Sequence record: PZ618369.1
DNA: 39,474 nt
Direction: 5' to 3' (one strand)
DNA from: a phage
In this document: positions 1-6,373 of the stretch, one piece after another
Layout of the letters: each line of letters opens with the position of its first letter
Numbering within the stretch: position 1 is the first letter of the stretch
The notes under the pieces: model-generated
The model's input: the letters and a program-made list of their open reading frames with translations, nothing else
Databases searched by the model: none
What the model was told of the DNA's origin: nothing
Program-made: the position numbers and the translations under genes

Positions 1-159
1 ATGGCAAAGACCAAAGCTGTGCTTAAAGCTCTGGTGACCAACCGAGCTACATACAGGTTTCTTGCTGCTGTTCTACTTGCTGCTGGCGTTACTGCTGGAA
101 GTAAGTGGGTCGGGTGGGTCGAGACTCTCGTATGCTCTCTGGTCTCTCAGTGTAATTAA
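1..159 (+). CDS. small hydrophobic protein at the gene 19.5 position (52 aa)
   Basis: ATG at window position 1, translated by hand to a 52-aa ORF with a central hydrophobic segment (LAAVLLAAGVTAG); an AGGAGG ribosome-binding site sits at 39460-39465 if the window is circular; position after gene 19 matches T7 gene 19.5. Confidence 0.4.
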   Translation: MAKTKAVLKALVTNRATYRFLAAVLLAAGVTAGSKWVGWVETLVCSLVSQCN

Positions 160-405: not shown

Positions 406-600
406 TCTCACAGTTCAAGAACCTCAAGTCTCCCCATAGGCCTCCTTCAGTCCAGACCAAAGGCCATACCCCAGTCTATCATAAGGTTGGACAGATGGTC
501 AATACTTCAGGTCAACGATAGGTCATGACGATAGGTGGTGGTGGAGACGATAGGTAGGGACTATGGGTCTGTCTCTGAGTCTCCATCTGTATAACCATAA
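406..600. repeat. putative genome left terminus and direct terminal repeat (extent uncertain)
   Basis: TCTCACAGTT...CCCCATAGG at 406 onward resembles the T7 left-end sequence TCTCACAGTGTACGG...CCCCCATAGGGGG as I recall it; followed by CTCTGAGTCTCCATCTGT similar to the end of the T7 terminal repeat. Confidence 0.3.
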
Positions 601-740
601 GTCACTAACCATAGGTCCTACAACCATAGGTCCTACAACCATAGGTCCTACAACCATAGGTCCTACAACCTACAGTCTCAACCATAAGACACCAACACCT
701 ACAGTCATAGACCTACAGTTAATAGACACACAGCTATAGA
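585..740. repeat. tandem short-repeat array: four perfect 15-bp copies of CCATAGGTCCTACAA at 609-668 with degenerate flanking copies
   Basis: read directly from sequence; analogous to the short-repeat array after the left terminal repeat of T7. Confidence 0.8.
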
Positions 741-2108: not shown

Positions 2109-2843
2109 ATGAACGCACACGATAAAGTAATCATGAACAACCTTATGTCTCAGCTTCACGCTATCATCTGCGAGGAGTGCTACAAGATTGAAGCCTCTTG
2201 CGCTGGCATAGCAGGTCAGCCACGCTGGAGAGCCTTTGAGATACTGGCACGGGAACATGGTTACAAGCTGTTAGGCTTAGGGCATTTCGCTGCCGCCTTT
2301 GAGCATGAGGACCTTCCGGGATATGCAATCAAGGTGGGCTTTAAGAAGGACGACTCAGGCGCTGCATATGCGGCATTCTGCCGAGAGAATGAGGGAATGG
2401 CTGGACTTCCAGTCATCCATCTTGTCAAGCGATTTAGCAGGGCGTACATGGTGGCTATGGATAAGTACCGCTCACTGGATGAAATTGGCGGGGACTACTG
2501 CCGGGACGGTGAGACCTATGAACAGCGAGTCTTAAACGTGTCGTGGCGTGTAGTAAACGCGGTGATAGACCACTGCGAGATGCCGTCAACCGCGCTGTAT
2601 TGGTGGCTGGATAGTGCGGCCCGCTCTGAGTTCGCTTACTTAGAGGCCCAGTACATTAAAGACCTTGCGCAGACTGCACGTAAGATTCATACGTTCTTCT
2701 ACGGTCTGGCATCGTTCGACACGCACCGGGCTAACGTGATGGTAGATAACAGCGGGCGCTTGATAATCACTGACCCAGTGTCTTGGACTCAGGCAGACCA
2801 TCAAGACGAGTTGCAAGGCATACTCAACACAATAGCTGAGTGA
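2109..2843 (+). CDS. 0.7: serine/threonine protein kinase gp0.7, kinase domain only (244 aa)
   Basis: GLGHFAAAFEHEDLPGYAIKVGFKKDDSGAAYAAFCR matches recalled T7 gp0.7 (GNGHFSAAYSH...[20 protein letters not shown]); about 115 aa shorter than T7 gp0.7. Confidence 0.85.
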   Translation: MNAHDKVIMNNLMSQLHAIICEECYKIEASCAGIAGQPRWRAFEILAREHGYKLLGLGHFAAAFEHEDLPGYAIKVGFKKDDSGAAYAAFCRENEGMAGLPVIHLVKRFSRAYMVAMDKYRSLDEIGGDYCRDGETYEQRVLNVSWRVVNAVIDHCEMPSTALYWWLDSAARSEFAYLEAQYIKDLAQTARKIHTFFYGLASFDTHRANVMVDNSGRLIITDPVSWTQADHQDELQGILNTIAE

Positions 2844-2909
2844 TAGACGAGAGGCCACTACATCTAGTGGTCTCAAAGATTATTTCTCACAACATATAGG
2901 AGCGTCGCC

Positions 2910-3071
2910 ATGAAAGCATTGTTAACTTACATCACAATCATCGCACTCTGGGTTACTGCTGTGGCTACCGATGGCAATGCTGGTCACTGGGGCTGGCTGG
3001 CGGTCGACATCATTATGTCGCCTGTAGGAGTGGTGCGCGGCCTGCTGATTCTCTTCGGGCTTGCGGGATGA
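2910..3071 (+). CDS. small membrane protein (53 aa, two predicted TM segments)
   Basis: hand translation MKALLTYITIIALWVTAVATDG...VVRGLLILFGLAG; RBS TAGGAG upstream; stop overlaps next start (ATGA). Confidence 0.45.
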   Translation: MKALLTYITIIALWVTAVATDGNAGHWGWLAVDIIMSPVGVVRGLLILFGLAG

Positions 3072-3268
3072 TTATGGGCTGGGCACTTCTGGTCATCGGC
3101 TACGGGTTAATACTCGCAGTCCTCACGAAAGACATCGTGAAAGCACGTAAAGTCTACCGCTTCCAGTATGTATCGCTGGGGCGCTGGACTGTACGTCAAC
3201 CTAACGGACGATTCATGCGCAACCTCGCGAACGTCTGGGATATAGCAACTCTTGGGAGCAAACTGTAA
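3068..3268 (+). CDS. small membrane protein (66 aa, N-terminal TM segment)
   Basis: ORF track; N-terminus MIMGWALLVIGYGLILAVL is hydrophobic; translationally coupled to both neighbours. Confidence 0.5.
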   Translation: MIMGWALLVIGYGLILAVLTKDIVKARKVYRFQYVSLGRWTVRQPNGRFMRNLANVWDIATLGSKL

Positions 3269-3594
3269 TGAACAAGGCATACGGGATTAATCTGGTACAC
3301 TCTATGGACGCAGACCTTAATCTGCTTTCAGCACTGGCTACGGGCTACCGTCACGGGACCTCAAGTCACACCATTCGTCAACAGCAGGAGCGCGACCGGG
3401 TGCTACAAGTAAGACTCCGGGCTGAGGGCCATAAGTCCGAGCTGATGTGTCTGGCGTATGGTGGACGACCAATCACCGACGATGGTAAACTTCTGGTCTC
3501 AGGCTGGAAGGCGATAGACCAACGGTCAACCATCAAGCACACGACTCGCGGTGACTTCAGTCATCTTCACGCTAACCCTCTGATATGCAAGTAA
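3268..3594 (+). CDS. hypothetical protein (108 aa)
   Basis: ORF track; start overlaps preceding stop (TAATG); no recognisable motif. Confidence 0.55.
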   Translation: MNKAYGINLVHSMDADLNLLSALATGYRHGTSSHTIRQQQERDRVLQVRLRAEGHKSELMCLAYGGRPITDDGKLLVSGWKAIDQRSTIKHTTRGDFSHLHANPLICK

Positions 3595-3602
3595 TTCTGA
3601 CT

Positions 3603-3621
3603 TAACTATCACTATAGGACT
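3603..3621 (+). promoter_or_regulatory. phage RNAP promoter upstream of gene 1 (TTAACTATCACTATAGGAC), +1 G near 3617
   Basis: matches the window's own promoter consensus. Confidence 0.6.
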
Positions 3622-3691
3622 CAAGGTCTAAGACTCCAAGTGAAAGACCAAAGAGACTTTAAGTGAAAGACTAATAACAAGGACTTTAAGT

Positions 3692-6373
3692 ATGAGCGTC
3701 ATCTCTATTGACAAACACGACTTCTCTGACGTGTCGAATGCCATTGAGCCATTTAACCTGCTGGCTGACCACTACGGGCAAGACCTTGCAGTCAAGCAGC
3801 TTCAGCTTGAGCATGAGGCATACACTGAAGGCGAGCGACGTTTCATCAAGAACCTTGAGCGCCAGACTGAGCGCGGGGAACTGGCAGACAATCAGGTCGC
3901 CAAGCCTTTGATGCAGACTCTGGTCCCTAAGATTGCGCAAGCCGTCAAGGAGTGGCACGAAGGAAAAGACGGGAAGCTGTCAACCTCTCGCCCAAGCGTA
4001 GCGTTTACCATGCTGAGCACTGATGAGAAGGCTGTCAAAGACCGCTCTCTGCTCATCTCCTGTGGGTCTGCTGCGGTTATCATACTGAAGGTCATCCTCT
4101 CCAAGCTGGTCAAGCCTGAAGGGATACCGATTACACCGATGGCCTCAGCGATAGGCCGCACACTTGAAGATGAAATCCGCTTCGGTCGCATTCGTGACAA
4201 GGAGCGGGAGCACTTCAAGAAGGCGATAGCTGAGAACCTGAACAAGCGAGCCGGGGCATCCTACAAGAAAGCCTACATGCAAGCGGTTGAAACCTCCATG
4301 CTGGAGCAGGGTCAACTGGAAGATGCGTGGGGAAATTGGAGTCCTACCGAGGCGGTACACGTTGGCATCAAGATGCTTGAGATTGTCATCCAGTCTACAC
4401 AACTTGTCGAGCTTAAGCGTTATGGTGCTGGCAATGCATCGGCTGACGTTGAGATGGTCCACCTGTCAGACTTCTGGGTAAAGAAGATGGCACAACGTGG
4501 ATTCAGCCTCGCGGGTATCGCGCCAGTATATCAACCTTGCGTAGTACCACCTAAGCCGTGGACTGGTGTCGTGGGTGGTGGGTATTGGGCCAAAGGTCGC
4601 AGACCGTTGCCGCTGATTCGATTAGGGTCTAAGTCTGCGGTGGCACGTTACGAAGACGTGTACATGCCTGAAGTCTACGACGCTGTGAACATCATTCAGA
4701 ATACACCTTGGAAAGTGAACAAGAAGGTTCTGGACGTGGTGAACATGGTCGAGAAGCTGAACAACACACCTATTAAAGACATCCCGCAAATGGAACCACT
4801 GAAGCCTGAGGACTATGCAGGTGAGACTGAAGAGGAACTCAAGGCATGGAAGAAAGCTGCTGCTGGTATCTATCGTCGCGAGAAGGCCCGAAAGTCACGC
4901 AGATTGTCACTGAGCTTTATCGTTAACCAAGCGAACAAGTTTTCTCAGTTTAAGGCCATCTGGTTTCCGTACAACATGGATTGGCGAGGTCGCGTCTACG
5001 CTGTACCGATGTTCAACCCTCAGGGTAACGACATGCAAAAAGGCCTCCTGACTCTTGCGGTCGGCAAGCCTATTGGTTCCGATGGCTTCAAATGGCTGAA
5101 GGTACACGGTGCAAACTGTGCGGGTGTAGATAAAGTAACCTTCGAGGAGCGCATTAAGTGGGTGGAAGACAACCATGACAACATCATGGCTACCGCTAAA
5201 GCACCGATGGATAGCATTGAGTGGTGGGGCAAGTTAGGCTCCCCGTTCTGCTTCCTTGCGTTCTGCTTCGAGTATGCTGGCGTAATGCATCACGGATTGT
5301 CTTACTCATGCTCGCTGCCGATAGCGTTCGATGGGTCATGCTCTGGGATTCAGCACTTCAGCGCGATGCTTCGTGACCACATCGGTGGACATGCAGTAAA
5401 CCTGACGCCTTCCGGTAAGGTCCAAGACATCTACCGCATCGTGTCTGACCGCATTGAGGAGGAACTTAAAGTCCTGCTGGTTAACGGTACGGACAACGAG
5501 ATGGTGACTCAAGAGGACAAGAAAACAGGTGAGATTACCGAGCGTCTTAAGCTGGGGACACGAGAGCTTGCGCGCCAGTGGCTTACCTATGGTATGTCAC
5601 GAGAGGTCACTAAGCGTTCGGTCATGACTCTGGCATACGGGTCGAAAGAGTATGGATTCGCAGACCAAGTGTACGAGGATATCGTGATGCCAGCGATTGA
5701 CTCAGGGTCTGGCGCTATGTTCACCGAGCCAAGCCAAGCATCTCGCTTCATGGCTAAGATGATTTGGGAAGCTGTTAGTGTGACCGTAGTTGCTGCGGTT
5801 GATGCGATGAAGTGGCTTCAAGGTGCTGCCAAGCTGCTGGCTGCTGAAGTGAGTGACAAGAAGACAGGCGAAATCCTGAAGCCGTGCCTTCCTGTACATT
5901 GGGTCACACCCGATGGTTTCCCGGTCTGGCAGGAATACCGAAAGAAAGATACCACTCGTCTGAACCTGATGTTCTTAGGGTCATTCAACCTTCAGCCTAC
6001 CGTCAACAGAGGCACGAAGAAAGAGTTGGACAAGCACAAGCAGGAGTCAGGCATTAGCCCGAACTTCGTCCACTCACAAGATGGTAGCCACCTCCGCAAG
6101 ACTGTAGTCCACACGCACCGCAAGTATGGCGTGATGTCCTTCGCAGTGATTCACGATAGCTTCGGGACCATCCCGGCTGACGCTGAGTATCTGTTCCGTG
6201 GCGTCCGTGAGACGATGGTAGAGACCTACCGCGACAACGATGTGCTGCTTGACTTCTACGAGCAGTTTGAATACCAGCTTCACGAGAGCCAGCGCGACAA
6301 GTTGCCTGAGCTTCCGAAGAAAGGTAAACTGAATATCGAAGACATCTTGTCTTCAGACTTTGCATTTGCTTAA
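3692..6373 (+). CDS. 1: DNA-directed RNA polymerase, single subunit (893 aa)
   Basis: palm motifs and C-terminus ...HDSFGTIPADA...ILSSDFAFA match recalled T7 RNAP; size and position. Confidence 0.97.
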   Translation: MSVISIDKHDFSDVSNAIEPFNLLADHYGQDLAVKQLQLEHEAYTEGERRFIKNLERQTERGELADNQVAKPLMQTLVPKIAQAVKEWHEGKDGKLSTSRPSVAFTMLSTDEKAVKDRSLLISCGSAAVIILKVILSKLVKPEGIPITPMASAIGRTLEDEIRFGRIRDKEREHFKKAIAENLNKRAGASYKKAYMQAVETSMLEQGQLEDAWGNWSPTEAVHVGIKMLEIVIQSTQLVELKRYGAGNASADVEMVHLSDFWVKKMAQRGFSLAGIAPVYQPCVVPPKPWTGVVGGGYWAKGRRPLPLIRLGSKSAVARYEDVYMPEVYDAVNIIQNTPWKVNKKVLDVVNMVEKLNNTPIKDIPQMEPLKPEDYAGETEEELKAWKKAAAGIYRREKARKSRRLSLSFIVNQANKFSQFKAIWFPYNMDWRGRVYAVPMFNPQGNDMQKGLLTLAVGKPIGSDGFKWLKVHGANCAGVDKVTFEERIKWVEDNHDNIMATAKAPMDSIEWWGKLGSPFCFLAFCFEYAGVMHHGLSYSCSLPIAFDGSCSGIQHFSAMLRDHIGGHAVNLTPSGKVQDIYRIVSDRIEEELKVLLVNGTDNEMVTQEDKKTGEITERLKLGTRELARQWLTYGMSREVTKRSVMTLAYGSKEYGFADQVYEDIVMPAIDSGSGAMFTEPSQASRFMAKMIWEAVSVTVVAAVDAMKWLQGAAKLLAAEVSDKKTGEILKPCLPVHWVTPDGFPVWQEYRKKDTTRLNLMFLGSFNLQPTVNRGTKKELDKHKQESGISPNFVHSQDGSHLRKTVVHTHRKYGVMSFAVIHDSFGTIPADAEYLFRGVRETMVETYRDNDVLLDFYEQFEYQLHESQRDKLPELPKKGKLNIEDILSSDFAFA

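Follow-up and report, generated by a model that had tools for sequence, protein, structure and literature searches.

In phages T7 and T3, gene 1 follows gene 0.7 almost directly, as the earlier note on this DNA had stated: gene 0.7 ends at position 3100 and gene 1 starts at 3171 in T7, the corresponding positions in T3 are 2905 and 2976, and the gap is about 70 bp in both. T3 and Klebsiella phages carry, in order, SAM lyase, 0.6, 0.65, a full-length kinase, and RNA polymerase; in T3, a feature annotated as "RNase III recognition site R0.5" (1359-1408) precedes gene 0.6 (at 1430). In T7 the first gene after the R0.5 hairpin is 0.5, whose product, like the first product of the locus described here, is small with two hydrophobic segments. 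T7 gp0.4 is an inhibitor of FtsZ, and T7 gp0.6 is said, in work by Molshanski-Mor et al. from 2014, to inhibit MreB. Non-homologous genes with the same role can share a slot in these early regions, as Ocr and SAM lyase do at 0.3.

The DNA analyzed here (record PZ618369.1, 39,474 nucleotides; the whole of it is referred to as the window) is, as judged by comparison with deposited genomes, a Kayfunavirus, a K1F-like T7 relative within the Studiervirinae. DNA identity of the early region is 83-92% to many Kayfunavirus phages, with hosts in Salmonella, Escherichia, Enterobacter, Shigella, Klebsiella, and Cronobacter. The earlier note had listed three ORFs between the kinase and RNA polymerase genes, at 2910-3071, 3068-3268, and 3268-3594; all three are present, encode 53, 66, and 108 amino acids, and are called orfA, orfB, and orfC below. 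The stop/start junctions also read as claimed, with ATGA at 3068-3071 joining orfA to orfB and TAATG at 3266-3270 joining orfB to orfC. The features of the locus are as follows.

2109-2843, + strand: short gp0.7-type protein kinase, 244 aa (phrog_15752, E = 1.7e-109)
2838-2888, + strand: two-stem RNA hairpin, R0.5-like; 5′ boundary of the block
2910-3071, + strand: orfA, 53 aa; two hydrophobic segments; phrog_7319, K1F gp0.36
3068-3268, + strand: orfB, 66 aa as called (64-66 aa); probable start at 3074; phrog_2385, K1F gp0.37
3268-3594, + strand: orfC, 108 aa, basic; phrog_7066, Kayfunavirus gp0.38
3600-3622, + strand: phage RNA polymerase promoter, directly 3′ of orfC and before gene 1; 3′ boundary of the block
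3692-6373, + strand: gene 1, T7-type single-subunit RNA polymerase, 893 aa; same annotation in all relatives

Counterparts of the three ORFs have been deposited as "hypothetical protein," for example in Salmonella phage ST29, and the gene table of Enterobacter phage B1 lists, in order, the kinase, proteins of 53, 64, and 108 aa, and RNA polymerase (PMC12785254). To place the locus among its relatives, we used as a comparison set the roughly 220 phage records with gene 1 at ≥80% identity. Against this number, orfC was found in 224 phage records and orfB, at ≥60% identity, in about 215 (499 when all matches are counted), whereas the short kinase was found in 43 and orfA in 51 in total, about 46 of them close. 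By these counts orfB and orfC are genus core, variation lies in the kinase and orfA, and most Kayfunaviruses are without any kinase. The same picture emerged from 27 Kayfunavirus loci examined base by base, in which the order orfB-orfC-gene 1 hardly varies, whereas about half have the kinase and eight have orfA. The layout of R0.5-like hairpin, slot for a small transmembrane (TM) protein, orfB, orfC, promoter, and gene 1 was seen in the 27 loci and in a divergent phage, L033; the type phage K1F has orfA and orfB, a truncated orfC, and no kinase. The earlier note had taken the three genes to be inserted between the kinase and the polymerase. Comparison of the loci argues the reverse: orfB and orfC before gene 1 are the standard layout, the sporadic element is the kinase, and the locus is a standard Kayfunavirus early-gene block, not a special insertion.

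The 5′ boundary of the block is formed by a hairpin that folds at -20.6 kcal/mol (z = -2.6) and that stands 5′ of the block in every Kayfunavirus locus examined, whether the kinase is present or absent. It aligns with the T7 sequence around nt 1430, which separates genes 0.4 and 0.5, and with the R0.5 site annotated in T3. A consensus structure of 13 pairs in two stems was derived; almost every pair is retained, and 6 of them show G-C/G-U/A-U exchanges. The hairpin thus has both the sequence homology to T7 and T3 and the two stems with an internal loop by which R0.5 can be recognized, and we regard it as a putative RNase III processing site, homologous to T7/T3 R0.5, at which cleavage would be expected by homology. 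An Rfam search of positions 2600-3900 gave zero matches; Rfam holds no family for R0.5. Annotators should note that the conserved R0.5-type hairpin is often wrongly called as coding sequence or taken for an extension of orfB at its N terminus.

At the 3′ boundary, positions 3605-3618 perfectly match ACTATCACTATAGG, the consensus of the phage promoter; 14 matches were not reached in any shuffle. The promoter is nearly invariant across 25 loci, and about 11 copies of ACTATCACTATAGG are found on the + strand of the whole window. A consensus scan of the + strand found no phage promoter upstream of 3605; a sigma-70-like promoter is located at 972-1001. The hairpin in the interval from the phage promoter to gene 1 scored no better than shuffles (z = 0.18). 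Since it has an R0.5-like hairpin at its start and a phage promoter at its end, the block corresponds to the R0.5/0.5/0.6 segment of the host-transcribed early message in the T7 group.

orfA is preceded by an AGGAG Shine-Dalgarno sequence 7 nt 5′ of its ATG, and its product matches phrog_7319 (E = 1.2e-19). Hydropathy analysis placed its hydrophobic segments at residues ~1-21 and 30-53; for orfA and orfB it agrees with the earlier reading of two products with N-terminal membrane segments, and it gave none for orfC. An alignment identified ten invariant residues (W14, T16, A17, D21, W29, D33, P38, V42, R43, and G44), and two of these, the charged D33 and R43, fall within the second hydrophobic segment. 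With the K1F gp0.36 family orfA has in common its length, the two hydrophobic segments, and the signature W-TAV...DGNA...GW-VDI--SPVGVVRGLL. It is a rarer sub-type, however, at 62-68% identity to the K1F-type copies, and only one record is more than 90% identical. A relationship to T7 gp0.5 (phrog_16572) was considered and rejected, as phrog_7319 was the sole PHROG match; a T7 gp0.5-like protein that occupies the orfA slot in phage L028 does match phrog_16572 (E = 1e-3).

The earlier note had recognized none of the three products. For orfB this has to be revised, as it is, by homology, the counterpart of T3 gene 0.6. The protein matches phrog_2385 over its full length (E = 5.4e-28), T3 gp0.6 (NP_523298; E = 9e-30) and gp004 of Klebsiella phage Pharr (E = 1.4e-29) match the same family, and a direct BLASTP comparison of orfB with T3 gp0.6 gave 33% identity (E = 1e-7). 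Further members are gene 0.6 of phages phiYeO3-12 and AP5, the Pharr "putative membrane protein," K1F gp0.37, and CR8 gp0.71. With T3 gp0.6 as the query, 597 phage records were retrieved, mainly from Klebsiella, Yersinia, Pectobacterium, and Erwinia phages and T3-like coliphages; given these 597 and the 499 records matching orfB, the family is present in roughly 800 sequenced phages of the Studiervirinae, infecting Klebsiella, Yersinia, Pectobacterium, Erwinia, Serratia, Escherichia, and Salmonella. No function is assigned to any of the three products in the libraries and literature searched, nor is one described there for any member of the T3 gene 0.6 family.

The orfB protein consists of a single N-terminal hydrophobic segment (~2-24) followed by a very basic tail, with a pI of 11. 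Like T3 gp0.6, it is about 65 aa long (64-66 aa in both), with an N-terminal TM helix and a basic tail that contains a TVRxxNGRF core (R-x-T-V-R-x-x-N-G-R-F); a TM domain has also been reported for gene 0.6 of phage AP5 (PMC4283147). Both genes are early and lie downstream of the R0.5 hairpin, although here orfA intervenes; T3 0.6 precedes a full-length kinase and has 0.65 as its next neighbor, whereas orfB comes after the short kinase and is followed by orfC. The helix, the tail, and its core were seen in alignments with T3, K1F, and Dev2 and with 37 relatives; among the relatives, the TM sequence is variable, whereas the tail, KARKVY-F-YV--GRWTVRQPNGRF-RNLANVWDIATLGSKL, hardly varies. Even in phage L033, where orfC is down to 39% identity, this tail has scarcely changed. 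Since most homologues begin at the second ATG (MGW... or MSW..., 64-65 aa), orfB likely starts at 3074, two bases past the orfA stop, rather than at the ATGA overlap. A relationship to T7 gp0.6 was rejected: hhalign gave a probability of 0.35%, T7 gp0.6A belongs to phrog_8393 and not to phrog_2385, and T7 gp0.6, unlike orfB, is without a TM helix. The two proteins being unrelated, the activity against MreB cannot be transferred to orfB by homology.

orfC, with a Shine-Dalgarno sequence on its 5′ side, matches phrog_7066 (E = 1.6e-44). It has a pI of 9.6 and no hydrophobic segment by hydropathy, and is on this prediction a soluble basic protein. It is a full-length member of the Kayfunavirus gp0.38 family (EcoDS1 Gp0.38, CR8/Dev2 gp0.38), about 90% identical to many deposits. 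The N-terminal region of this family is variable, giving forms of 83-86, 108, 130, and 139 aa, of which orfC is the 108-aa form; Dev2 gp0.38 has only the C-terminal ~34 residues in common with it. Three motifs are conserved, ERDxVL, YGGxPxxDDGKLL, and HT(T/S)xGDFxHL, and in every Kayfunavirus-like locus examined (the 27 loci and L033) the gene is the one immediately before gene 1. At 90% identity the family forms 145 clusters, every one of them on phage-sized contigs. A profile HMM search of 1.84 billion representative proteins recovered only 13 clusters at 50% identity, and no link to other families was found in that search. An AlphaFold2 model has a three-helix core at ~33-88 (pLDDT ~90) with flexible ends, for which no significant structural neighbor was identified.

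Two candidate relatives of orfC were rejected. Comparison with the C-terminal shut-off domain of gp0.7, taken as the C-terminal ~120 residues of the T7, T3, and Pharr proteins, gave BLASTP E values of 0.25 and 3.4 and a profile-profile probability of 0.3%. T3 gp0.65 (phrog_10380), suggested by a shared "AYG" stretch, belongs to another PHROG and gave an hhalign probability of ~1%. At the DNA level, synonymous diversity is about two-fold lower in the 3′ half of orfC than in the 5′ half, and positions 3535-3594, the 3′ end of the gene, are near-invariant. An equivalent of the sigma-70 "C promoter" was sought over the 3′ end as an explanation for the low synonymous variation; it was not found.

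By homology, then, orfA, orfB, and orfC are further members of known, uncharacterized gene families. Scans of Pfam and NCBIfam with the three proteins returned nothing meaningful, PADLOC-DB gave zero matches at E values up to 1, and sequence-profile searches of the PDB with orfB and orfC found nothing. Literature searches covering early genes of the K1F group, T3 gene 0.6, screens of accessory genes, and knockout maps of T7 turned up no functional data on these families. The earlier note had held that the same ORFs in many T7-like phages, with an assigned function, would count against it; the block is indeed present in over 200 K1F-like phages, and no function is assigned to it there.

We considered whether the frames might be open by chance, as short ORFs that domain databases do not recognize could be. 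Against this, the frames are kept in hundreds of genomes, so that the conservation in close relatives on which the earlier note had staked its reading is borne out; dN/dS is 0.14 for orfA, 0.19 for orfB, and 0.22 for orfC (7 to 24 distinct homologous sequences), the PHROG matches are strong, and Shine-Dalgarno sequences precede orfA and orfC. Given dN/dS values in this range, which indicate purifying selection on all three, the frames are by alignment genuine genes, and chance is next to impossible as their origin. Whether the genes belong together is a separate question. The earlier note had seen in them one inserted, co-translated module, a single membrane-associated system for takeover, exclusion, or anti-defense. 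The tight junctions are what such a module would have, and all three genes are enclosed by a single putative processing hairpin and the promoter that follows it, so that one processed mRNA probably carries them; orfB and orfC are adjacent in nearly all relatives, and divergence of orfA and orfB is tightly correlated (rho = 0.94), in the 5 loci that have both. Stop/start overlaps, however, are the rule throughout genomes of this type, between functionally unrelated neighbors as well (phage B1, Table 1; PMC12785254), and are therefore no evidence for a functional unit. The distributions are unequal (51 records for orfA, 499 for orfB plus the 597 matching T3 gp0.6, and 224 for orfC), and the three do not travel together in other T7-like genomes. 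T3-like and Klebsiella phages have orfB, upstream of the kinase, without orfC, and Yersinia phage phiR8-01, of a different subfamily (Melnykvirinae), has an orfA homologue in its early region without an adjacent orfB. The slot before orfB is filled variously by an orfA-type protein, a 41-aa protein (ST29), or a T7 gp0.5-like protein (L028 and L033), and in several phages HNH homing-type endonucleases are inserted exactly between orfB and orfC. Pairwise divergences of orfB and orfC show only a moderate correlation (rho = 0.48), equal to that of orfB and gene 1, and some pairs of phages are nearly identical in one of the two genes and more than 20% different in the other. These comparisons suggest that orfA, orfB, and orfC evolve and recombine independently and do not form an obligate unit; as an insertion the module is largely refuted, and as a single system we hold it to be very improbable. 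The correlation in those 5 loci leaves room for a functional link between orfA and orfB.

Two further proposals assign specific roles to individual genes. The membrane proteins, orfA above all, might act in superinfection exclusion or anti-defense, blocking entry of DNA from a later phage or disarming a membrane-acting defense. orfA would suit such a role: it is patchy, is swapped with unrelated small hydrophobic ORFs, is present in another subfamily, and is early, with no phage promoter upstream, and its D33 and R43 suggest a specific interaction or oligomer in the membrane. On the other side, no PADLOC, Pfam, or NCBIfam model was matched, orfB and orfC are genus core rather than patchy, and orfB is kept across many host genera, which a conserved housekeeping target would fit better than strain-specific defenses; overall we judge the proposal unlikely. 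orfC, for its part, could stand in for the missing C-terminal shut-off domain of gp0.7, or regulate transcription around gene 1. The kinase of the window aligns to residues 55-219 of T7 gp0.7 only, so that it stops at the kinase domain and the shut-off domain is absent, and in most Kayfunaviruses the kinase is missing altogether. The basic, helical orfC protein, of 83-108 aa, is encoded directly upstream of gene 1, where T7, T3, and Pharr encode the basic C-terminal domain of gp0.7. We nevertheless consider this role for orfC quite improbable.

The reading that we favor, and hold to be moderately probable, is that the block is an R0.5 segment of the early message carrying three independent small genes, which encode separate, non-essential host-takeover proteins. 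[quoted passage not shown] For orfB, the positive-inside rule predicts an inner-membrane protein whose N terminus faces outward and whose basic tail lies in the cytoplasm. Since the tail is invariant across phages of many enterobacterial genera, it may bind a conserved, membrane-proximal host target common to the Enterobacterales. Our best single guess for this target, offered with low confidence, is the cell-elongation or cell-division machinery, because genes 0.4 and 0.6 of T7 lie in the same early part and there is precedent for slot sharing; with no detectable relationship between orfB and T7 gp0.6, it is a guess from position only. The conserved GDFxHL tail of orfC probably serves to bind a host factor in the cytoplasm, and orfA would be an accessory membrane protein that phages can exchange, with exclusion or anti-defense as plausible roles. 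The early genes of T7 up to 0.7 are dispensable (PMC11482910). By analogy, and because orfC is truncated in K1F, the three genes are probably dispensable too; the near-universal retention of orfB and orfC in the genus could mean that both matter more than "non-essential" implies. A further proposal combines two roles, with orfB as an inhibitor that is anchored in the membrane and acts on a conserved inner-membrane machine of enterobacteria, in the role that the unrelated gp0.6 has in T7, and orfC as a Kayfunavirus-specific replacement for the gp0.7 shut-off domain or a tuner of the gene 1 promoter; this we rate as rather unlikely.

The value of these results is mostly corrective, in that the locus is an ordinary early block of a well-sampled genus and has been deposited hundreds of times. 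The best target for follow-up is the orfB family, among the most widespread uncharacterized early genes of T7-like phages. The near-invariance of its tail suggests that the host target is conserved, and this may offer a new target for antibacterials. If orfB is such an inhibitor, or orfC such a factor, the outcome in either case would be a new small-protein inhibitor whose host target is new as well.

The 3' end (window 3535-3594) of orfC, the gp0.38-family gene, is near-invariant at the DNA level across 25 loci, third codon positions included, and synonymous diversity over codons 67-108 is about half that over codons 27-56. No sigma-70 promoter was detected when one was sought in this 3' end. 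The gp0.38 protein of the related phage Dev2 has only this C-terminal part in common with orfC, which suggests a recombination junction. In phage K1F the orfC homologue is unannotated and N-terminally truncated, and lies within a 358-bp "gap" 5' of gene 1; in the related loci L015, L018, L019, and L022, endonuclease genes inserted at the exact boundary separate the orfB homologue from that of orfC.

K1F (L005, NC_007456) 2271-2468: 65-aa truncated homologue of orfC with a GTG start, corresponding to residues 41-108
L015 2073-2498, L018 2076-2498, L019 2118-2552, and L022 2076-2498: HNH/endonuclease VII-type homing endonuclease, phrog_2633, 140-144 aa

Among orfB proteins, whether deposited or predicted, many have a spurious extension of 21-32 aa at the N terminus, giving totals of 85-96 aa, and spurious ORFs beginning VIDERSSTDRWPQRL... 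are likewise present; the source of both errors is gene calling that runs through the conserved R0.5-type hairpin. Many relatives also contain a 50-aa ORF matching PF26807 (Phage_T7_GP04), the family to which the FtsZ inhibitor encoded by T7 gene 0.4 belongs; the window has no copy of this ORF.

L006 (phage Pisces) 2394-2657, also L003, L009, L017, and others: orfB with spurious extension and/or spurious ORF
L033 (divergent phage) 3087-3239, and Kayfunavirus loci such as L005 1620-1772: 50-aa ORF (VMVTYGLCQHHVT...), Pfam PF26807

The gp0.7-type kinase of the window is only 244 aa long; it aligns with residues 55-219 of T7 gp0.7 and lacks the C-terminal host shut-off domain. This kinase is found in only 43 phage records, compared with about 220 that have the same gene 1. 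Several kinase-less Kayfunaviruses encode a 174-aa protein with no Pfam match. Its N-terminal sequence, MKLIGKGAFTKCYLKDCGKRV, resembles a glycine-rich nucleotide-binding loop, and the protein may therefore be an alternative kinase-like protein in these phages.

Window 2109-2843, + strand: gp0.7-type kinase
L008 1134-1658, also L007, L012, L015, and L025: 174-aa protein, phrog_11084

The non-coding left-end region contains a perfect tandem repeat, with weaker repeats at window 509-536, 697-727, and 738-771. The ORF with which the window opens and the last gene of the published phage B1, at the right end of that genome (PMC12785254), are both 52 aa long; the window may thus be a permuted assembly, with its true left end after approximately position 160.

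Window 607-670: tandem repeat, 15-bp unit AACCATAGGTCCTAC, 4.3 copies
Window 1-159: 52-aa ORF

Directly 5' of gene 1 lies a perfect phage promoter, whereas the T7 and T3 annotations have none at the corresponding position. The promoter is kept in 25 related loci, and because of its placement gene 1 is transcribable by its own product.

Window 3600-3622, + strand: phage RNA polymerase promoter
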